From Lama guanicoe (lineage: Eukaryota): a stretch of DNA of 64,000 nucleotides. Position 1 is the first letter of the stretch. Each line of letters begins with the position of its first letter. Under the pieces are notes generated by a model. The model was not told the DNA's origin. It searched no databases and was given only the letters and a program-made list of their open reading frames with translations. Location of the stretch: contig MU053513.1 of NCBI GenBank assembly GCA_013239625.1, forward strand, positions 516,370 through 580,369, given 5' to 3'. Shown piece by piece: positions 5,071 through 58,040 of this stretch. Both the position numbers and the translations under genes were made by a program.

Positions 5071-5908
5071 GCAGCATGGATAGACCTGGAGGGTTTATGC
5101 TGAGTCAAATAAGTCAGACTGAGAAAGACAAATACCATATGATTTTACTCATAGGTGGAATCTGTAAAACAAAACAGATGAACAATTAAACAGAAACAGA
5201 GTCATAGATACAGAGAAAACACAGGTGGCTGCCAGAGGGAAGAGGGGTGGGCGGATAAGAAATAGGAGAGGGAGATTAAGAGGAACAGGCTTTCAGTTAC
5301 AAAATAGATATCTCAGCTATGAAATGGTCAGAGTGGAGAATACAGTCAATAATAATGTAATACCTTTGTATGGTGACAGATGGTAACTAGACCTATCGTG
5401 GTGATCATTTTGTAATGAACAGGAGTATTAAATCACTATTTTGTGCACCAGAAACTAACATAGACTTGTAGGTCAATTATATCTCAAAAACAAGCAAATA
5501 AGCAAACAGACTTCTAAAAAAGAGGTGAGATTTGTGGCTACCAGAGGAAGGAGATGGAGAGAAGGGGGAATTGGATAAAGGTGGTCAAATGGTACAAACT
5601 TCAGGCTATAAGATACATAAGTAGTAGGAATGTAACTTATAACATGATAAATATAATTAACACTGCTGAATGTTACATATGAGAGTTAACACTGCTGTAT
5701 GTTACATGTGAAAGTTAAGACAATGAATCCTAAGAGTTATCACAAGGAAAAAGTTGTTTTTCCTTTTATTTTGTATCTCTATGAGATAAGAGCTGTTCAC
5801 TAAACTTATTGTGGTCCTCAATTCATGGTGTACGTAAGTCAAATCAGGTTGTGCACCTTAAACTTCTACAGTGCTGTACATCAATTTGATCTCAATAAAA
5901 CTGAAAGA
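5071..5908 (+). mobile_element. 5'-truncated LINE-1 (end of ORF2 plus 3' UTR with two tandem 3'UTR-like modules)
   Basis: 'gcagcatggatagacctggagggtttatgctgagtcaaataagtcagactgagaaagacaaataccatatgat' is the L1 ORF2 end; finishes 'gatctcaataaaactgaaag'. Confidence 0.9.
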
Positions 5909-5933: not shown

Positions 5934-6003
5934 TAACCACTGTTCTTTAAAGTATGCTAAGTAATTACTAACCACTTTTCTTTAAAGTATGCTAAGTAAT
6001 CAC
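5934..6003. repeat. 35-bp tandem duplication (2 copies, 2 mismatches)
   Basis: taaccactgttctttaaagtatgctaagtaattac / taaccacttttctttaaagtatgctaagtaatcac. Confidence 0.9.
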
Positions 6004-27968: not shown

Positions 27969-28081
27969 GGGGACAGGGTATAGCTCAAGTGGCAGAGCAC
28001 ATGCTTAGCATGCACAAGGTCTTGGAGTTGATGTCCAGTACCTCCGTTAAGAATAAATAAATAAATACTCCTAAAAAAACC
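27969..28081 (+). mobile_element. tRNA-derived SINE, camelid Vic-1-like
   Basis: tRNA-like head 'ggggacagggtatagctcaagtggcagagcacatgcttagcatgcacaaggtcttggagttgatgtccagtacctcc', (TAAA)n tail, TSD agaaatga at 27961-27968 and 28082-28089. Confidence 0.88.
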
Positions 28082-34700: not shown

Positions 34701-36204
34701 TTATGTCCACCTCAGTCTACCCTGGAGAGTTTGAAGCAAGAAGAAGAAATATGATTTATAATTCGGAGTAGAAACTTTTGGGGAATTCCAACATCACAGA
34801 TGCAACTATACATAGTGGGTAGTAATTAGAAAAACAGAATCCAGGCCTTTTTAAGAGGCCACAGAAGTGTTCTAACAAGAAAAATTCCATTCCAACCTGC
34901 TTTCAGTAACCTATTCATCTGCGTCCCTTCCAAGCCTTCCTTTTGACGACAGTTCTCCCGCTGAGGTCTAGTGTCCATAGACTTAGCACCGCCTTGAAGT
35001 TTCACACTGTGGCCCAGGGTGCTTTGTCAGCTTCAAAAGAAGTAAGGGCTTCAAATCGCATTGTACAAATTGAGGCAAACGTCAATATAGTATTATATGC
35101 ATGTGTTTATTTTTATGGAACTAATATATAGTCTGTTTCAGTTAAAACCAACCATGCATTATTCGCCTGCAGACAGCACGTATTTGAAAGTTGATGGCCA
35201 TTATATGGAAAAACACTTGAAAACGCATGAGTTTTGTACAGCACTGAGTCAAAGGTAACGTACCCAGAAGGCGATCTCCGCTGGGAAGTTGCAAGGGCTT
35301 CTACTGAGGATAAGGCTGCTAATGTTGACGTCAGAGGAAGGAAAAGGGCAAAGAGCAAAGGTAAGTGTTTCTTTAGCTTATATTTTTCCCCCTAAGGGAA
35401 CTTTAACATAGCATGCCTCTAAAAACTGATACAGATTCCAAATTTCCATATAATATAAGGCCTCCCCACAAAAAAGGGTCACTTTCCCTGAAAGTATCTG
35501 GGCTGTTTCAGTTAAGGAATGCCATTTAGTGGCCTCTGTTCAAAACACTGGATTGGGTTAGTGCTTACCCCTATGAATGGCAAGACTGAGAAACATCAAA
35601 CACTCTTTATGAAAATGCAACTGCATTTTCATTTACTCTTAAGCAATAAACAGGGCTGAGCCTTTCAAAGGCAATTTTAACTATATTTTATCATATTTCT
35701 TGGATTTTCCTGCTGGACAGTAGGATAGTCACTCCCAAATCAGCTGAACTGGGGGAGTTGGTGGAGTGTCCCAGGATGCTTATTTTTAAGCAACCCAGGG
35801 TGATTCTGATCGATAATCAGTTAGTTTGGAAAACCTTTGTTTTACTTCAAGGATACTCCATGAAAAGCAAAGCTCTGATTTATAAATTTTCACTCCAGTA
35901 TAGATGCAGAGCCTACTAGACCTATGGCTGCATTTTTATACCTGTTCCCCAAAATGCTACACCTCATTTCAAACCTCCTCTTGGTTTCTCTAAAACCCAA
36001 CCATTGTTTTTGCCCAACTGTGTCACTAAGTAAAAGCTGTAGAGAAGAGTCTGCTTCATCTTTTCCACAGCCTACTTATTTCTTTGTTTTACTTTTTCCC
36101 TTGGTATTTTTTTCTTCCTAAACTTAGTTTATCACTCCCCTACAACTGTCTCCTCATCCGCTACAATTGTCTCCTCATATGCAAAAGATTCCTATTCTAA
36201 CTCT

Positions 36205-36661: not shown

Positions 36662-36928
36662 GTCCTGTTCCTTCTTTTCCTGTCTAGCCCAATTCTCCCA
36701 TATTTAACACAAAAAAACTTTTTCTGCCTCTCCCGGTCTTTCTCCCTTGTCCTCTCTTCAGACCGATACATGCCATAAAACAACCAGAGACACAAGCCAA
36801 AGAGTGGCATTCATGATACATCTTTATGGACAAGACAGGTATCACTAGACTTGGGTTCCTTAAGGGCAGGGACTGCGTATTGTCCTCTTGGGATGGCCCC
36901 TTCTAGCATAGATGCAGGTACGTGCTTA

Positions 36929-37069
36929 TGTTAGAGCAGGCAGGTAGCTAGATATGAGTAGAGAAGGGGGGACACGGGCCGAATGGCAGAAAACTATACA
37001 TCTTGTGAACAACAGAGGTCCTGGAATAGATCAAGAAAAACAGAATCCTCCAGACTGATTTACAAAAAA

Positions 37070-37113
<44 letters not shown>

Positions 37114-37515
37114 TCAGGGTTGACAAGTGTCCTGGAGGCAAAAGGGTGGGACAAGACAGGAATGCCCACCATCTAAATGTAACCTTTCGATCATTCTGAC
37201 CTCATCTAACTTCCTGAACAAGACTAACTAAGGACAAAAAATCCCTCCTCCCCAGCTAAGAAGGTGGAGCTCGAATGAAAATAAGAAAAAAGGACACGAA
37301 ACCCTTCCGTGCCAGTGGATATTCTGCCCATTCATCTTTACACCCATATAATGAGCTTGCCAAGGAAACTCGGGGCAGCTACCCACCTGGGTCTGTCTGC
37401 TCTTTCCTGGAGAGCATTCCATCTATCCTTTAATAAATCCTTGCTTTGCTTTCTTGACCTCCATGTCTTATTTCTGAATTATTTCCGTGACAAGATGAGA
37501 ACCTTCTCATCAACA
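36929..37515 (+). mobile_element. ERV1-type solo LTR (family copy 1) with internal (CA)15(TA)5 tract
   Basis: TG...CA termini (tgttagagc...catcaaca), TATA-like 'catataa', AATAAA near 37432; homologous along its length to the reverse complement of 41115-41656. Confidence 0.85.
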
Positions 37516-38799
37516 ATGGTTGCTGCTTAAGAAATATTTTCCATCGATAGCTTTTAAAGTTAGGCAAAATTAAACTTCAATGCCTCCAAGTTTTAAAGTC
37601 TCTGAAAATTTTTCAAACTCAAACTCCATTTACATTTGTCAAATGTTTTCATCTACTTCCTCTTTGTCTTCAAATTCAACCTTGTGTCTTCAAAGTCAAG
37701 TGATCTGGATGAGTTTAATAATAATAATAATGATAATAATAATATAATGAATAACTCAGAGTTTAATGGAGTCATGACAAAGTTAATATTTCACTTGCAT
37801 TTCAGGACAAATATATGCTGAGAGTTTCCTCCGGAAACTTCACTGCCATTTGCTATTGTGTTTGCATTAAAAATATATTCTTCATTCCAAGAAATGCTTC
37901 ACAAAGCAGTCTCCTTTGGTCACAATGGATTTATGCATCTGAGACAGTTCTCTCCCTCTCTGGGTAATTCCAGCCCTATATCTGCATGCTGGATGTACTT
38001 ACCTCTTGCTATCCCTAAGTAATAATGTGATGTGATAAGTAAGATGGTCTTTATTCAAGGGAGACCATGGCAGGGGTGCTACCCCCCGGGCTTTTGTGGT
38101 AGGGAAGAGAGATCAGGGTCAACTCTGAATACAGCAAAGGGAAGCAGGACTTTATAACCAAGGAGCAGGGTGGGGATCAGTGAGTGAAAACTTACGAACA
38201 GGGAACAGCAGTGACAAGGGGGGATTCTGGCAAAACTAACTAGGCAAGATTCTTGCTAAAATTGGACGCTGTAAAGATGAACAGGGAAACCCAAAACTCA
38301 AGGCCTAGTTGAGAAGAGAGTTCAAAAGAGCCTGAGCAGAGTTTACTTACACAGGGAATCTTTATCAGAACTTGTAACATTAAGAGGGAATCTTCTAATA
38401 ATAGTATCACTGCCAGCACTACCTATCTTCTCGTCTCATTTATGATTTCGTAATGAGAAAACCCACCCTTATCTTTCCTCTAATCCAAGATGGGGATCCC
38501 TCATTCCTGTATGGAAGGTGTCAGTCCTTCCTCCTTAGCGTCCTCTCTTTAGCCTCTGCTTTGTGACTGCCTCATCGTCCTTCAGACTCCAGTGTTTTCT
38601 GTCGAAAGACAGCAGGTACTTAATTCCTCCTTGTTATTTTCCTGTCATGGATTCTTGGCTTCCCTTTACCTTTGCTGTTGGGGTTACCCTCCTCCATTCT
38701 GGCTTCTGTTCCTTACCCTATTTTGGCCCCTAGACCACAGTATTTGTGTTTTCTCTTTACAGCCCCCCACTGTTAAATTCCTCTTCATGTTGTTTCCTT
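37129..38799 (+). repeat. 1,671-bp duplicated block, copy 1
   Basis: No difference found by eye against 39032-40702; ORF translations recur at a constant 1,903-bp offset. Confidence 0.97.
38027..38367 (-). mobile_element. MER31/MER67-group ERV1 LTR (duplicated at 39930-40270)
   Basis: 'gagagatcagggtcaactctgaatacagca...tttataaccaaggagcagggtgggg' and 'aggcctagttgagaagagag...gggaatctttatca'. Confidence 0.7.
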
Positions 38800-39031
38800 A
38801 TTCTGCCTCTCCCGGTCTTTCTCCCTTGTCCTCTCTTCAGACCGATACATGCCATAAAACAACCAGAGACACAAGCCAAAGAGTGGCATTCATGATACAT
38901 CTTTATGGACAAGACAGGTATCACTAGACTCCAGCCTGTGCCTTTGGGTACTCTCTGAACACTCAGTAAACGGCAAGGATTAAAACCCTACTTGTAGGTA
39001 ATCTGTAGATAAGAACGGAGAGCTGGGATGA
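38800..39031 (+). other. Composite junction made of two templated inserts
   Basis: 38801-38930 equals 36722-36851 exactly; 38931-39030 equals 40830-40929 with 2 mismatches. Confidence 0.95.
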
Positions 39032-40702
39032 GTCCTGGAGGCAAAAGGGTGGGACAAGACAGGAATGCCCACCATCTAAATGTAACCTTTCGATCATTCT
39101 GACCTCATCTAACTTCCTGAACAAGACTAACTAAGGACAAAAAATCCCTCCTCCCCAGCTAAGAAGGTGGAGCTCGAATGAAAATAAGAAAAAAGGACAC
39201 GAAACCCTTCCGTGCCAGTGGATATTCTGCCCATTCATCTTTACACCCATATAATGAGCTTGCCAAGGAAACTCGGGGCAGCTACCCACCTGGGTCTGTC
39301 TGCTCTTTCCTGGAGAGCATTCCATCTATCCTTTAATAAATCCTTGCTTTGCTTTCTTGACCTCCATGTCTTATTTCTGAATTATTTCCGTGACAAGATG
39401 AGAACCTTCTCATCAACAATGGTTGCTGCTTAAGAAATATTTTCCATCGATAGCTTTTAAAGTTAGGCAAAATTAAACTTCAATGCCTCCAAGTTTTAAA
39501 GTCTCTGAAAATTTTTCAAACTCAAACTCCATTTACATTTGTCAAATGTTTTCATCTACTTCCTCTTTGTCTTCAAATTCAACCTTGTGTCTTCAAAGTC
39601 AAGTGATCTGGATGAGTTTAATAATAATAATAATGATAATAATAATATAATGAATAACTCAGAGTTTAATGGAGTCATGACAAAGTTAATATTTCACTTG
39701 CATTTCAGGACAAATATATGCTGAGAGTTTCCTCCGGAAACTTCACTGCCATTTGCTATTGTGTTTGCATTAAAAATATATTCTTCATTCCAAGAAATGC
39801 TTCACAAAGCAGTCTCCTTTGGTCACAATGGATTTATGCATCTGAGACAGTTCTCTCCCTCTCTGGGTAATTCCAGCCCTATATCTGCATGCTGGATGTA
39901 CTTACCTCTTGCTATCCCTAAGTAATAATGTGATGTGATAAGTAAGATGGTCTTTATTCAAGGGAGACCATGGCAGGGGTGCTACCCCCCGGGCTTTTGT
40001 GGTAGGGAAGAGAGATCAGGGTCAACTCTGAATACAGCAAAGGGAAGCAGGACTTTATAACCAAGGAGCAGGGTGGGGATCAGTGAGTGAAAACTTACGA
40101 ACAGGGAACAGCAGTGACAAGGGGGGATTCTGGCAAAACTAACTAGGCAAGATTCTTGCTAAAATTGGACGCTGTAAAGATGAACAGGGAAACCCAAAAC
40201 TCAAGGCCTAGTTGAGAAGAGAGTTCAAAAGAGCCTGAGCAGAGTTTACTTACACAGGGAATCTTTATCAGAACTTGTAACATTAAGAGGGAATCTTCTA
40301 ATAATAGTATCACTGCCAGCACTACCTATCTTCTCGTCTCATTTATGATTTCGTAATGAGAAAACCCACCCTTATCTTTCCTCTAATCCAAGATGGGGAT
40401 CCCTCATTCCTGTATGGAAGGTGTCAGTCCTTCCTCCTTAGCGTCCTCTCTTTAGCCTCTGCTTTGTGACTGCCTCATCGTCCTTCAGACTCCAGTGTTT
40501 TCTGTCGAAAGACAGCAGGTACTTAATTCCTCCTTGTTATTTTCCTGTCATGGATTCTTGGCTTCCCTTTACCTTTGCTGTTGGGGTTACCCTCCTCCAT
40601 TCTGGCTTCTGTTCCTTACCCTATTTTGGCCCCTAGACCACAGTATTTGTGTTTTCTCTTTACAGCCCCCCACTGTTAAATTCCTCTTCATGTTGTTTCC
40701 TT
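39032..40702 (+). repeat. 1,671-bp duplicated block, copy 2 (starts with the 3' 387 bp of the solo LTR)
   Basis: No difference found by eye against 37129-38799. Confidence 0.97.
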
Positions 40703-41114
40703 GGCTTACATTTTCCTTTGCTGGAATTCAGTGCTAACGTTTCCTGCTGCTCAGATTCCTTTAGTCTTAATTTCTACAGAATGATTTTCCTTTCTTGCAT
40801 TTACTAGGCAAGTTTCTTGCTAGAGTCTTCCAGCCTGTGGCTTTGGGTACTCTCTGAACACTCAGTAAACGGCAAGGACTAAAACCCTACTTGTAGGTAA
40901 TCTGTAGATAAGAACGGAGAGCTGGGATGTTGGGACAACCTGGATGCCAGTAATTTCCCAGGTTTGAATAGCAATCGGCTCCTGATCAATGTACTGATCT
41001 GAAAAATATTCAGGGGAAACAATCAGGGTATTCAGTGTATTGAGGGCCAATGCCAAAGAGAACTCAGAGAAGAATTTAGGTGATGAATATAATTTAGCTA
41101 AGTATTACTGACAT

Positions 41115-41656
41115 TGTTATTGGAGAGTAGGTTTTTGTCTCATCACAGAAATAATTCAGAAATGAGACACGAAGGGTAAGAAACCAAAGTGAGGATTTAT
41201 TAGGAGATAGTACACTCTCAAGGGAAAGAGTAGACAGACTCAGGTGAGTAGCTGTCCAGAGTTCCTTTGACAAGCTATTTATATGGGGTATAAAAATGAA
41301 TGGGCAGAATCTTCATTGGGGAAGTTGGGGTTTGGCACCGTAGTTCACCCCTGCTCCATCTTCCTGAGGGGAGGAGAGATTTTTATCTTTATTTAGCCTT
41401 GGTCAGGAATTCAGATGGGGACATAATGAGTGAAAGTTTACATTCTGATTCCAGAGATTCCTGCCTTATCCCACTTTTCTTTGTTTGCCTCCAGGACACT
41501 TGTCAACCCAAAATGTGTAGTTTCTTATCAGTCAAGAGGTCCTCGATTTTGTTTGTTTGCCCAAGGACCCCCATTGTTCATACGATGCACAGTTTCCTGT
41601 CATTTGGCCCATGTCCCCCTTTCTTTGCTCATATCTAGCTACCTACGTATCTAACA
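41115..41656 (-). mobile_element. ERV1-type solo LTR (same family as 36929-37515, inverted)
   Basis: TG...CA termini, near-TSD acat/agat; chance translations shared with copy 1 (FASRTLVNP; SFGPCPPF vs PFGPCPPF) show the homology. Confidence 0.88.
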
Positions 41657-50770: not shown

Positions 50771-52743
50771 TAGGCGAAATGGTGTGCCTGGCGGGGAACG
50801 GTTGTAATTGTAAGGTACTATTTGATAATTTTACCGAAGAAGGACATGATTCAAAGAAGATAAATAAGCCCCCTGCAACTGGGAAGACACAAAAGGAGAA
50901 TCTACTCAGAGTTTTGACTTCTAGTTTTGATTCCCAGTCTTTGACTGCCAGTCTAGCTGGATATGGTGGTGTTTTATGAGCTGAGTTAAATCTTTACAGG
51001 AGGCTCTGGGAAGCACAAAGAGAAAAAGGTCAAATCTACTGGACGGAGCACAGACATTTTCAGGAAAGACTTCTTCAGGGAGATGGCACTTGTGCTGGGA
51101 CTTAAATTTGAGATTCTCAGCAGTCAAGGTGAGACAGTCTCAGTCCCTGGGTCCAAATCCAATTTCTATGATTTTCATAACTGACCTTTTCTAAGTCCTG
51201 AGATTTCATGAAATGGTCAGCTTACCATATGGTCCACTTCTTCTCAAGTCAACACTTCCACTGCCCATTCAATGGGATTGTCTTAGTCATATTGGAGCCA
51301 CCTACTTCAGATTGATTTGCAAAACAAATCAGGTCTCTACTTTAGTGCCTAGCAGCTCTCTCTCACTGCACTCTGAGGAAGGTGTTGGGAAAGCTGTGAA
51401 ACAGTGAGAAGAATCCGGAAGCAGTATGATGAGAGATCATCGCTCCTAAGAACCTCACTTATGACCATCATAGCAAAGGTCCCTGTATGTAAAAACCCAA
51501 TTTCTGTCTCTAGGAATTGATTTTCCTCCTTCAGGCAATAATATCTTTGGCAATTTCCCAAAGAGCTTTCTAAACATTTCATAGTTTCTGTTGGAAAAAA
51601 AAAAAAGGATCCTCCCTAATACAGATAATAGAGTTAACAATAAGCTGTTCTGGGAACGGTCCCTGGTTACGTAACATTTAATAAATTCCTGAGTATGAAT
51701 ACTTGTGTGGCTTACTTTTCTCTCAGTACAACAGAAGTACAGATCTTTGCCTATGATTATTTTTCACTTTTTTTTTCAGTTTGATAGGATTTCGCCCATT
51801 GAATTATTTAATTAACACATCCATTTCCTCAGATACTTACTTTTTTTTTTTTTCTTTTTTGGTGAGAAAATTTAAGCTCTACCCTCAACAAGTAGTCTGT
51901 AGAAAGCCATGTTATACATTAGATCCTCATTTTGAATTTGTTAATGCAGGCTATGAGGATGAATGTAGACATTCAAGAAGTCTAAATTTAATGCAAGCAG
52001 AAGAACATAAGATTGAAAGTAAAGTTGTATTGTGATCAAAAGATTCATACTCTGCAATCAGACTGCAAATACATTACAGACTCACGTTGATTCAACTTTC
52101 ACGTCTACTTTAGTCCCTGGGTATAATTGTTAGGGGGCCTCTGACTCCCCAATGTCCACATACTTCACTCCCTTAAACACAGAAGTTTTACAAACTCCCA
52201 ACACAATATAGCTCCCTCTACTGTCATTAAATCACAACACCACAATGTAAATAGAAGAAAAAAAAAAAAGACAGACTTTCCTAAATAAGATCTTTAAAAC
52301 ACTAGTTTCAGAAACACAAAATAGAAAATTATATCTCCCCACAACAACAAACCACACATAAACTCAAAGCTGCATGAAAGTGTAGTAGTAAAAAATGACA
52401 GAAACTATAATGGTTTGGACCATAAAATATCCTTGTTTCGTGTTTCATATTTCTTTGAGATAACCTGCAAACTTCACTGGTAATATGCCTGTAAAAACCG
52501 GAAGTGAGTTACTGAAATTTATTTTACTGGATATAACTTAAAAAATCACTGCCAAAGGAATTCTTGTATTCCTCACAAACAATTCTGCAGAGTCACAGAA
52601 ATGGGTGAACATTAATTGCAAGCCCTAGTTATGTAGGGAAGCCAAGGCTCCATCCCATAAAGCCTTTGATAAATCTCCTGGCTGAAATTACACTCTTCCA
52701 CCCGAGTTATTCTGTGCTTTCACTTAGCACAACGGAGCAGACG

Positions 52744-53194
52744 TTGTGTGCGCCCCACCCGAGTCCCCTTTGCTGACTGGTGCTCTCAGCCCCCAGTGAG
52801 TGCTGGGGAGGAAGGCTTATACACACAACCCTCCCTGAAGTCCTGCCCTTGACTGACAGAGCCAATTCTTGCTCCCCAACTTCTCCTCCTGGGAGGCTAC
52901 ATCCCCACCCCCGTGGCAGTGCTGACACCTTACTACATGCGGGTGCAAAAGCTACTTCCCCTGGCCACAAGGTGAACAGCTCTACGATGCAGCTTACGGG
53001 ACAGAATACTCCTTGAGCCAAGCCGGTGACAAAATCGATGAGAGACCGCATTCTTGTCAGCTGGTTCCTCTCTCTTATTTTTCTTTCCTCACTCCCCTCC
53101 AGGTTTTTCTTAAAGAAGACTATTTCAATAAATACAGGGACTCAAATCCCTGTTTCAGGTAAGCTCAGCTTCTAGAAAATCCAACCTAAGATAC
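52744..53194 (+). mobile_element. LTR16-family ERVL LTR
   Basis: 'gaagtcctgcccttgactgacagagcc', and 3' end 'tcaataaatacagggactcaaatccctgtttcagg...cttctagaaaatccaacctaagataca'. Confidence 0.7.
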
Positions 53195-54896
53195 AAAATA
53201 TATTTCTTCTTCCTACTTAAACTATTAATAAACGTGATTATTTTATTTTTGGTGCCCAAAGAAAGGGATCATCTCTGATTTATTTTTTGAACATACTTTT
53301 TCATTTATTATTCTAACACCCACTTCTCAACCACTTTAACGTTCCTTCTCTCCTTCCTATTCAGTTTTACACCCAGGGGTGGCCTGGACTGGCAAGAGCT
53401 TTCATTTGTGTTGTATTTATATACCTGAAATGAGCATGTATATTTTTCACTACTTATATCACCTCTTTATTTATCTTTGTTTTTTTTTAACGATTTCCAC
53501 TTCCTTTGATCAGCCCCGTATGTAAAATCGAAGAGAATACTTTATAATTGGCCAAACCATATAGTTAGTATGTATGTGTATGCAAGCTTAAATCTCTTTT
53601 AACCACTTAGGAAATAAGTATATATATCAATCTCGACCTTGATAATTTTATATTAAAAAAAGAAAAAGAAAAAGGTGCTTTGTTTATTGTTTGTTCAAAG
53701 TATTATACATTGTAACTCCTAGAGATTTTTTTTTTGTAATAGAATAACTTTATACAGGCACAAAAGGACAGAAAGACTTTGGTAACACTTTTTATTATAT
53801 TGCTTCAATAATATTACTTTACTAAACTGACTTGTTTCACTGGTTATTTTAGTCATTTGAATTGGTCATTAGATGCTGTTTCAAGTTGCATTATGATTAA
53901 CCTGAGAGAAGGGACTGCCTCTTTTATTGATCAGACCTCTTAGAAGGCTGCTTTTACTTCTGGCACTTAGGCAAATTGTTGACATTCAGCAAATGTGTAT
54001 TTCACGTAAATTTGTTGCATGTTGCTAAGTTTGCCTAATTCTAAAGAGTAGTCAGTGATTACGTCGACCGAGAAAAGGTTGTTCTTCACATCTCATCCAT
54101 CAAAGTGAAAAAATAAAAGTACATTTGAGGGAAAATTTTGTTTCCAGCCAGTCTATGATGGAGGTCTTTTCCCATTCAGAACGAAAGGAGTAAAAAAAAA
54201 ATACATAAAGGAAACCAAAAGCAAAGAATTTTAATAGCAATGACAAGTTTGTTTTCAAAAAAATTTTAGACATTTTGATTGAAGCTGGATATTTTGAAAA
54301 GCGATCAAAAACATTATGTGACCACCACATAGTTAAAAAAAAGAATAGAAAATTACACTAGTTGATGATTGTAATTGTACAACTGCATCTTTTAATCTAT
54401 CAAAATATTTTCTTTAATTTTCTTTTTTAGTTTTCATCCCAACTTTTCATAAGTTTACTAAGCTTTATATTGAACAAAGACTATGCACTTTTTCCCCCAA
54501 TCTTTATCTAGGGTTATTGACCTATTATCAGATAAGAAACACACACACAATCCAACAACACTCTTTTATAGACCTTGGCCTCTATTAAACAAGAGCATAA
54601 AAAAGGTATCAGTATAAATTCAAAGCACCAATATGATTTCTCCCACAAAAATGGACAAAAACTCCTCAGGAACCAATATTTTGTAGAACAGGAAAATACC
54701 TATAAATGTGCTTTGTCCCTCTTTCACCACTACTTAAAATCTTTTGATTTACCTATTAATATTCTGAATTACATAGTATATCCATTCAGAATGCAAATCA
54801 TCAGTTTCCATTGATTGTATATACTTAATTACATACTCTGGTGAATAAAGGAGTAAGTTAATAAATGCATTACCAAAGAAAAAAGAATAGTGATTT

Positions 54897-55041
54897 AAAA
54901 AATGTTTGTTGGTTTTGTTTGTTTGTTTGGTGGGGAGGTAATTAGATTTATTTATCTATTTCAGTGGCTGTACTGGGGATTGAACCGAGGACTTTGTGCA
55001 TGCTAGGCATGTGCTCTACCACTAAGCTATACCCTTCCTTC
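54897..55041 (-). mobile_element. tRNA-derived SINE, camelid Vic-1-like
   Basis: Antisense head 'gtactggggattgaaccgaggactttgtgcatgctaggcatgtgctctaccactaagctatacccttcc'; 14-bp TSD aagaatagt[g/a]attt at 54883-54896 and 55042-55055. Confidence 0.9.
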
Positions 55042-55194: not shown

Positions 55195-58040
55195 AGTTTC
55201 CAGTTCCACATTAAGGAGCTTGGAAGTCCCCGCTATATCCTAACAATAAGAGAAAAGCTGAAAAATCAACAACTCTTTTAAGATCCATAAGTGAGAGAGG
55301 GGAAGACACAAGGAAAACTGCTGCTCCCAAAACTGGAGAAATAGACAAATACAGGGAGTTGCAGAGACTTAAGAACAGAAGCTGCGTGCTTCTGGTGCGT
55401 GCTGGTGCGTGCCTCAGTAGTAAAACCTGAAATGTAATTGACAAATTGTTGGCGGCTCAGTGCAAAAGAACTCTGAGAGTTAAAAACCCCAGAGATAACT
55501 CATTCATGGTGAGGGTGGGGGGCTACAACACCCTGAGATTTATCTCCAGCAGCTTGGCCTTGTTCCCACAGTACATATAGGAGAAAAAAAAACCCTGAAG
55601 CTTTAGGCAGAGGAACCATTTTGAAATATACAATTTTGACACAGTTGAAACACACAAATACACTTCTGTTCTTCTTAACAAAGCCTGCCCTCAAAAGAAA
55701 CTGGTCAACCAGAGCCTAACCTGCTGGGTGTTATCAGAACCTAACAGAACTGGGGAAGTAAAATGCCCTCTCCAGCTGGCTCTAGCAATCCTGTTTCATC
55801 AAAGAGGAGAAAAAACTAAGAAACACTTGTGACGTTCACAATCCAGAGATGTAAACTCACTGAAAGCCTGAGACCTAAGCATGTGACTATGAAATGCTTC
55901 CTCCACCTTCACCACCATGTTACTGAAGGCCTATTTATAGCATCCTTTTATCCAGCACACCATGTACGGCTATCAAAAAATTGCAAGGCATATCAAAGGT
56001 AAAACGATGTGATTTGAAGAGGCAGAGAAAACATCAGAACCACAGAGAGAAAGATGTTGGAATTATTAGACCAAGAATTTAAAACAACTATGATTAATAT
56101 GCCAAGGGTGTTGACAAAGTGGACAGCATGCAAGATTATATAAGCAATGTAAGCAGAGAGACCAGAATCCTAAGAAAGGACCAAACAGAGATGCTAGAAA
56201 TAAAAATATAGACGTGAACAATGCCTTTGGTGGGCTTAATAGTAGACTGGAAGTAGCTGAGGACAGAGTCTCTGAGCCAGAGGGTGTGTCGAACAGAATT
56301 CTCAGAAACCAAGAGCAAAGAAAACAAAGACATAAATAAATAAAAAGAACAGAACATCCAAAGACTGTGAAACAACTAAAAGGTGTAATTGGAATACCAG
56401 AAGCAGAATAAAGAGAGAAAGAAACAGAAGAAATATTTGAACCAAACCACACCCAGAAGGTCAGAGTGTGTCAAGCCAAAACAAACAGACAAAAACCTAG
56501 GTATATCATTTCAAATTACAGAAAATCAAAAATAAAGGAAAAAAAAAACCCGAAAGAAGAGGGAAAAAAAGAAAAAAAAAACGATGTATAGAGGAACAAA
56601 GAAAAGAATTACATCTGACTTTTCCTCAGAAACCTTGCAAGCAAGAAGACAGTGGAATAAAATATATCTCAAAATGAGAGAAAAAAGCCACCAACGTAGA
56701 ATTCTGCACCCTGAAAAGTTCTTCTTTAAAGTTGAAGGAAAAATAGAGACTTTCTCATACAAATAAAAATTGAGGGCATTTGTTGCTGGTTCATCAGTCT
56801 TTCAAGAAATGTTAAAAGATGTTTTTCAGAAAGAAGAAAGATAGTATAGGTCAGAATCTCAGACCTACATATGGAAATTAAGAGCACTGAAGATTGAATA
56901 AATGAAAGTAAATTAAAGACTTTTCTTTGATTCTTACTTGATCTAACAGGTAACAGCTTGTTCAAAATAATAGCAACAACGTACATAAAGGAAATTAAAA
57001 AGTACTCTTAAAATTTAACAATAAGAAAGAAAACAACCTGATCAAAAAATGGGCAAAAGACCTTAATAGACACCTCACCAAAGGAAATACACAGATGCCA
57101 ATTAAGCTTATGAGAAGATGCTCACATAATTTGTCGTCTGGGAAATACACATTAAAACAATGAGATACCACTACACACCTGTTAAAATGACCAAAATCCA
57201 GAGCACTGACATCACCAGATGCCGGTGAGAACGTGGAGCAACAGGAACTCTCAGACATTGCTGGTGAGAATACACATGGCAGTCACTATGGAAGACAGTT
57301 TGGTAGTTTCTTATAAAGGTAAACATACTCTGACTATATGAGCCAACAACTGTATCCCTTGATATTTGTTCAAAGGAGTTGAAACTCAGGTCTACACAAA
57401 AACCTGCTGATGGAAGTTTATAGCAGCTTTATTCATAATTGTCAAAATTTGGAATCAACCAAGATGCTCTTCAGTAAGCGAAGGGATAAAATGCTGTACA
57501 TGCAGAAAAGGGGATATTATTCACTGCTACAAAGAGCCAACAATACATGAAAAGAAGTGGAGGAAACTTAAATGCATGTTACTAAGTGAAAGAAGCCAAC
57601 CTGAGAAGGCTACATACAATATGATTGCAACTATATAATATCCTGGAAAAAGCAAAACTGTGGAGACAAATAAAGATCAGTGGTTGCCACAGGGACTAGG
57701 GGTTTGGGGAATATGAATAAGCAAAGTACAGAGGGTTTTAGTACAGTGAAAATATTCTGTATGATATTATAATGATGGATATATATTCTAAATTTATCCA
57801 AACTCTAGAATGTAAATCACCAACATTGAATCCTAAGTTAAACAATAGACTTTGGGTGATTACAATGTGTCAATAAATGCTCAGCCTTGTTAAAAATATA
57901 CCAGTCTGGTGAATGATGTTGATAATAGGGGAAGTTATGCATGTGTGTGGATGGAATGTATATGGAAAGTCTCTTTACCTTCCTATCAGTTCTGCTGCAA
58001 ACCTAAAACTAGTTTAAAAAAATAAAGTATTCAGAAAAAT
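55195..58040 (+). mobile_element. L1MC1/2-like LINE-1: 5' UTR, decayed ORF1, large internal deletion, ORF2 tail and 3' UTR
   Basis: ORF 56584-56766 'RITSDFSSETLQARRQW...RILHPEKFFFKVEGKIETF' is the ORF1p C-terminal region; the ORF2 tail starts near 56995 ('aaaaatgggcaaaagaccttaatagacacctcacc'); L1MC-type end 'aacctaaaactagtttaaaaaaataaagt'. Confidence 0.88.

Follow-up and report, generated by a model that had tools for sequence, protein, structure and literature searches.

Tandem duplications of the patchwork, or templated-insert, class are well described in humans and in worms. In C. elegans, failed SDSA is reported to produce tandem duplications with Pol theta junctions and a median size of about 1 kb, together with patchwork inserts, which derive from repeated primer-template switching (Kamp et al. 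2021, PMC8654963). Tandem short template (TST) jumps reported in human cells after bridge breakage have a median of 183 bp, with five of 13 junctions at 1 bp or less (Umbreit et al., 10.1101/835058), and local n-jumps and cycles of templated insertions have been catalogued in cancers (Li et al. 2020, PMC7025897). Local inserts from multiple templates are reported at 191 of 1,651 complex human germline deletions, in a study that uses the class name 'Ins with MultiDup and Del' (Sudmant et al. 2015, PMC4617611), and also in clinical rearrangements (PMC5120786, PMC6258378), and new point mutations have been described beside replicative junctions (Beck et al. 2015, PMC4352052). An example insert from the FoSTeS/MMBIR set (PMC5120786, PMC4352052, PMC4617611) comprises 376 bp from at least three loci.

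We report a duplication of this kind in a camelid genome assembly, within a window of 64 kb, by which we mean the whole stretch of DNA that was analysed. The anatomy can be read directly from the letters. A segment of 1,671 bp, B (37129-38799), recurs letter for letter at 39032-40702, as established by self-comparison of the window and by an exact-match search of 35-43 kb, and an earlier note that had reported no differences between the two copies was right. The same search finds that the first insert between them, A' (38801-38930), is an exact copy, over all of its 130 bp, of the native template A (36722-36851), again as had been claimed. The second insert, D' (38931-39030), had been described as a copy of D (40830-40929, 100 bp); alignment supports this for 98 of its 100 bases, the two mismatches that were missed being at 38941 and 38980 (40840 and 40879 in D), 10 and 49 bases past the second join. 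All but two of the 232 bases of the spacer are traced to local templates, so that the earlier description of it as not novel holds except for an untemplated A at 38800 and another at 39031. The order of the pieces, A..B-A'-D'-B-C-D, with every piece direct and on the forward strand and with a gain of 1,903 bp, stands as first proposed, where C (40703-40829, 127 bp) is present as a single copy. Native A lies 277 bp upstream of B and native D 127 bp downstream of it, and the insert as a whole is a circular permutation of B, A and D. Exact repeats of at least 25 bp in the window are otherwise limited to microsatellites and short LTR and SINE relics, and since the duplication is the only other such repeat a chance origin is excluded. 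A direct, head-to-tail local gain (B1 = B2) and a junction insert copied from breakpoint-flanking DNA (A' and D') together characterise a templated-insert tandem duplication, and both are found here.

The three joins can likewise be examined base by base. At join 1 (38797-38801), which links the end of B to the start of A, a shared CTT is followed by the A at 38800, where the A template has T and the continuation of B has G. Join 2 (38930-38931), from the end of A to the start of D, has a single shared base, T, and at join 3 (39030-39032), from the end of D to the start of B, one shared G is followed by the A at 39031, against a T in both templates. The two added bases are each an A supplied by neither template. 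The microhomologies, of 3, 1 and 1 bp, are of a length that chance could also give, the first and third are followed at once by a mismatch, and there is no long homology at any join. In the coordinates that preceded the event the jumps measure -2,078, +2,075 and -1,898 bp. The middle jump lands no more than 4 bp off register, so that the event may equally be written as a tandem duplication of B-C-D (1,898 bp) in which the first C (127 bp) is swapped for A' plus one base (131 bp), which occupies the native place of C. The chance that a free jump lands this close is about 0.1-0.9% when ranges from 5 down to 0.5 kb are considered, and we estimate that it rises to a few percent if both pieces were limited to read-like sizes. 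Both substitutions fall in the 100 bp of D', the remaining 1,801 duplicated bases being free of them (P ~0.003 under an even spread over 1,901). This near-register return and the clustering of the substitutions are the only unusual points of the locus, and an assembly error could leave each of them too. Further micro-templates were considered as the source of the junction bases and of the D' differences and were rejected, the best local matches, of 8-10 bp, being on a par with those at random positions (8-9 bp in 367 of 600 controls). The nine breakpoint segments that were folded gave 0 to -9.9 kcal/mol, computed without a shuffle control, and no notable hairpin.

The worm duplications (PMC8654963) share with this locus their size range (about 100 bp to 10 kb), a direct orientation, short microhomology and multiple inserts from the flanks of the break, whereas they are reported from helq-1 mutants and their patchwork cases are at deletion junctions. 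TST jumps resemble it in their chained inserts of 100-200 bp, a hotspot of 1-3 kb, little microhomology and a few unexplained bases, but are described as chains of 8-14 inserts linking distant hotspots, where here there are two inserts at one locus (10.1101/835058). As in the cycles found in cancers, a local string of templates returns to its host and re-replicates a segment, with one phased solution and a low copy gain; the cancer events are somatic, often with inverted joins or distant templates, in contrast to three direct joins within 2.3 kb of a genome assembly (PMC7025897). Nearby multi-template inserts, short microhomology and junction-adjacent mutations are also features of the human FoSTeS/MMBIR cases (Gu et al. 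2016, PMC5120786; PMC4352052; PMC4617611), which, as reported, are mostly large disease rearrangements or deletions rather than a 1.9-kb non-coding gain in a camelid, and in comparison with which the near in-register middle jump is unusual. Lastly, the false duplications of genome assemblies (Ko et al. 2022, PMC9516828) resemble the locus in having adjacent, near-identical copies on one scaffold with their differences at one spot; they are described as usually split by a gap or a gap in depth, whereas this locus has no N and local templates account for the spacer in full.

The explanation that we prefer, with a probability of roughly 0.6, is a real allele, private or rare, that arose in one break-repair event of the Pol theta or MMBIR type with patchwork templated inserts. 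A break near the start of B would have left an end that was extended, on the left side, along an intact template through the 1,671 nt of B. Failing to anneal back cleanly, this end would have re-primed on a microhomology of 1-3 bp at A, a short way upstream of the break, for a stretch of 130 nt, and then a second time at D, immediately past B, where the copying of 100 nt left two errors; joining to the right end, where B begins, would have closed the break. An untemplated A would have entered two of the three joins, and the predicted product is a tandem duplication of 1,903 bp whose patchwork junction has two pieces, as in the Pol theta end-joining / MMBIR family. That there was one event, which enzymes took part, in what order the steps followed and that the product exists in the DNA of the animal are all matters that we infer from the assembly sequence. 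The earlier note had assigned the locus to FoSTeS/MMBIR or to Pol theta-mediated joining, which is apt as a class; given the microhomologies and the untemplated A at two joins, end-joining of an extended end is at least as good a fit as pure FoSTeS. The single event with three switches that was then proposed likewise survives as the most likely origin, with the amendment that the two D' differences need either error-prone synthesis or a second haplotype. Against such a single event, two differences in 100 bases of D' imply a high error rate, the near-register return is not predicted by it, and both backward jumps are of about 2 kb, like circularised 2-kb library fragments. Inserts copied by Pol theta are usually shorter than the 100-130 bp seen here. 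When all the readings in which the duplication is real in some form are taken together, we consider its reality likely.

The identity of the copies sets a limit to their age. With no differences in the 1,801 bp of A and B, the 95% upper bound on divergence is 0.17%, which at 1-2 mutations per billion per year would put the event at less than 0.4-0.8 million years ago, or twice that if the two D' differences were counted. The phrase 'very recent' in the earlier note is limited by the sequence to no more than this. The same note had called the duplication possibly polymorphic, which is not shown: the junction words are in none of the public data sets listed. For this comparison positions 38740-39090 were submitted to a public run index as 321 words of 31 bases, 187 of which also occur outside the insert and 134 of which are found solely across the joins or in D'. 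The share of words expected is 0.58 for a non-carrier (up to 0.72 if its D has the D' letters) and 1.0 for an animal with all three joins, against 0.90 where just joins 1 and 2 are present; with join 3 only it is 0.68, so that word shares cannot set such a carrier apart, and nor can they tell which D letters a population carries. In 20 of the 24 rows listed, representing 17 samples, 8 studies and 5 organism labels, the share was 0.60-0.70 of 30 sampled words (the other four, two small rows at 0.00 and two unindexed, were left out), and none of them shows the joins, the best row, with 21 of 30 junction-region words, being at the non-carrier level. With joins 1 and 2 present, a share as low as 0.70 would have P ~0.0008, a figure to be read with the same 30 words having been used for every row and with many runs not being served by the index. 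Simplification of the contig graph may also drop short joins, and the Logan methods leave the handling of short connected contigs unclear (PMC12424806). The templates therefore exist in close relatives, and the joins are shown by none of the data sets listed. This absence fits an allele that is private and much younger than the bound, an artefact, or a change that arose in cultured cells; the alternatives are a duplication confined to the sequenced animal and an error of assembly. Among the papers listed on structural variants in alpaca none is on this locus by its title or the opening of its abstract, and the supplementary tables of camelid variants could hold the allele.

An assembly artefact, in the two forms that we consider below, is in sum a serious minority possibility. 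In the more credible of these, which on its own we regard as unlikely, the contig of B was placed twice and the gap between the placements was filled by reads across circularised fragments of about 2 kb, the fills from the two sides merging on the one shared T of join 2 and D' representing the other haplotype or an erroneous read. Both backward joins do run from end to start over about 2 kb (2,078 and 1,898 bp), each with an extra A, although spans of that length also follow from the length of B and the nearness of the templates. A' and D' are of the size of reads, identity of the B copies would be automatic, and no public holder of the joins was found among the data sets listed; on the other hand, two chimeric joins must survive error cleaning, and the window contains no gap, no N and no adapter-like sequence. 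The lack of any N between the copies (0 N in the 64 kb) speaks against a false duplication in general, but a filled gap would look alike. False duplications are reported to be often joined by unsupported gap fill (PMC9516828) and mate-pair libraries to yield chimeric junction reads (10.1101/025650); the model is our own combination, of which the cited papers support the parts only, and no paper that we found describes such a gap-fill artefact whole in its title or the opening of its abstract. If the duplication is false, 1.9 kb of the reference is in error and assembly artefacts can mimic the scars of template switching; if it is real, it is a clean patchwork tandem duplication, resolved to the base, in a livestock germline, and its in-register middle jump and the confinement of the substitutions to the last insert would be of use to repair specialists. 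A single locus does not by itself turn an open question into a testable one.

A second group of readings keeps the duplication real and derives it from two chromosomes or in two steps, with D' copied from the homologue, or a B-A-D circle re-entering the locus, or a later crossover; we hold this to be decidedly unlikely. It would account for two D' differences beside an exact A' and B without an error rate of 2%, and yet a heterozygosity of 0.1-0.4% would give two differences in 100 bp with a probability of 0.005-0.06, which makes an allelic origin a stretch. In the variant with a circle, three pieces (B, A and D) would be closed by end joining and re-enter via one crossover in B, which agrees with the insert being a circular permutation of the three and with near-blunt joins and single added bases that suit ligation. 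Template jumping is the simpler account of three direct and local pieces. In the crossover variant, a later exchange in B2 or C would import the D of another haplotype.

We give still less credence to a related reading in which the nascent strand took a patch of 131 nt from a site 2 kb upstream and then went on, in register, along the homologous chromosome, from which the two D differences would follow, or in which a three-piece circle was re-entered at B, and in which A' might alter a local non-coding transcript. The exon-like cassette of A' is intact and lies directly upstream of the duplicated 3' part of an LTR.

Hardly more than a marginal chance is left to the other form of assembly error, in which an allele with C replaced by A' was written head to tail with an A-B-C-D allele, joins 1 and 2 being real, with two linked substitutions, and join 3 with its A being an artificial seam. 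It explains the near-register geometry, with A' plus one base (131 bp) standing for C (127 bp), turns the D differences into allelic ones, and accounts for the mismatch at 39031 (A against T in both templates); heterozygous false duplications are also reported as the commonest kind (PMC9516828). Nevertheless it still requires a real event with two jumps, there is no gap at the seam, and the allele with joins 1 and 2 must be private as well, the best row being at 0.70 against the 0.90 expected.

Very improbable, in our view, is an older duplication, diverged by about 1-2%, in which gene conversion, or collapse during polishing, later made the B copies alike: the 2% divergence of D' would agree with it, and an exact A' of 130 bp has P 0.27 at 1% divergence, but no difference in 1,671 bp demands a complete and recent conversion, and an old allele should be shared, whereas none of the 17 samples, under 5 organism labels, was at the carrier level.

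Three further routes were rejected. The start of B lies inside an old solo-LTR-like relic (36929-37518, forward strand), so labelled by its LTR anatomy, with TG..CA ends and an AATAAA at 37432, so that the 3' 390 bp of the relic are duplicated; a second such relic (41112-41656, reverse strand), identical to the first in 420 of 533 aligned columns and flanking the site in the opposite orientation, contains no breakpoint. Non-allelic homologous recombination between repeats is out because no join lies at homologous positions of the two relics, which are inverted and only one of which holds a breakpoint, the start of B, and there is no homology across any join. An insertion templated by spliced or back-spliced RNA is out since, by eye, no join has a donor/acceptor pair and there is no poly(A), join 2 being 13 nt beyond a donor-like site of A. 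A proximity-ligation chimera is dismissed with GATC, GANTC or AAGCTT within 6 bp at none of the six native breakpoints. Separately, GANTC words arise across joins 2 and 3 that are not in the native templates, which we take as chance.

The locus is non-coding, gene-poor and repeat-rich, and the event touches no recognised gene, so that no phenotype is expected; the duplication is probably selectively neutral. An exact scan of a metagenome collection with a 24-base piece of D gave no matches and is uninformative. In a Pfam scan of 195 stop-to-stop frames of at least 62 amino acids, which covered those outside 37900-40200 and which short exons would escape, one frame exceeded the curated cut-off, a piece of L1 ORF1 at 56536-56763, 16 kb from the event, and three more gave weak matches below it. 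Native A contains an exon-like pattern, a pyrimidine tract and AG followed by 77 nt (36762-36838) and GT; the search pattern was designed after A was seen, which makes each match a lead only, and on both strands of the window it has eight matches, three of them being A (twice) and A'. Rfam gives one match in the window, far from the event, a tRNA-like SINE head at 54965-55034 which we take to be of the camelid type.

Two old solo-LTR-like relics of the same family, at 36929-37518 (+ strand) and 41112-41656 (- strand), lie in opposite orientation and are separated by 3.6 kb now and by 1.7 kb before the duplication, the 1,903-bp tandem gain. The relic at 41112-41656 is bordered by ACAT/AGAT, possibly a decayed target duplication. 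The relic at 36929-37518 holds the start of B (37129), the 1,671-bp block present in two copies. It also contains a microsatellite of compound type, (AC)n(AT)n, at 37072-37113, which stops approximately 15 bp upstream of the B start and may represent a stall or break site.

The native template of the first junction insert, A (36722-36851), displays an exon-like order of elements: a pyrimidine tract, AG, 77 nt (36762-36838) with one reading frame open, and GT. Its exact copy in the junction, A' (38801-38930), retains the whole of this pattern. A search of the 64-kb window with a pattern drawn up post hoc from A itself gave eight matches, three of them at A or A'.

Elsewhere in the window, a further candidate LTR-like relic (52627-53198), with TG..CA ends and AATAAA, was recognised by eye. 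A tRNA-derived SINE on the - strand (54930-55040; Rfam tRNA match at 54965-55034), which we take to be of camelid type, has a related copy at 27975-28066, and a decayed L1 relic (55200-57900) contains a piece of ORF1 (PF17490 match at 56536-56763, E 3e-9). Small tandem duplications with two copies apiece occur at three sites, 5657-5718 (29 bp), 5934-6000 (35 bp) and 36136-36178 (21 bp), the last approximately 550 bp upstream of A; their copies match at 90-96%.
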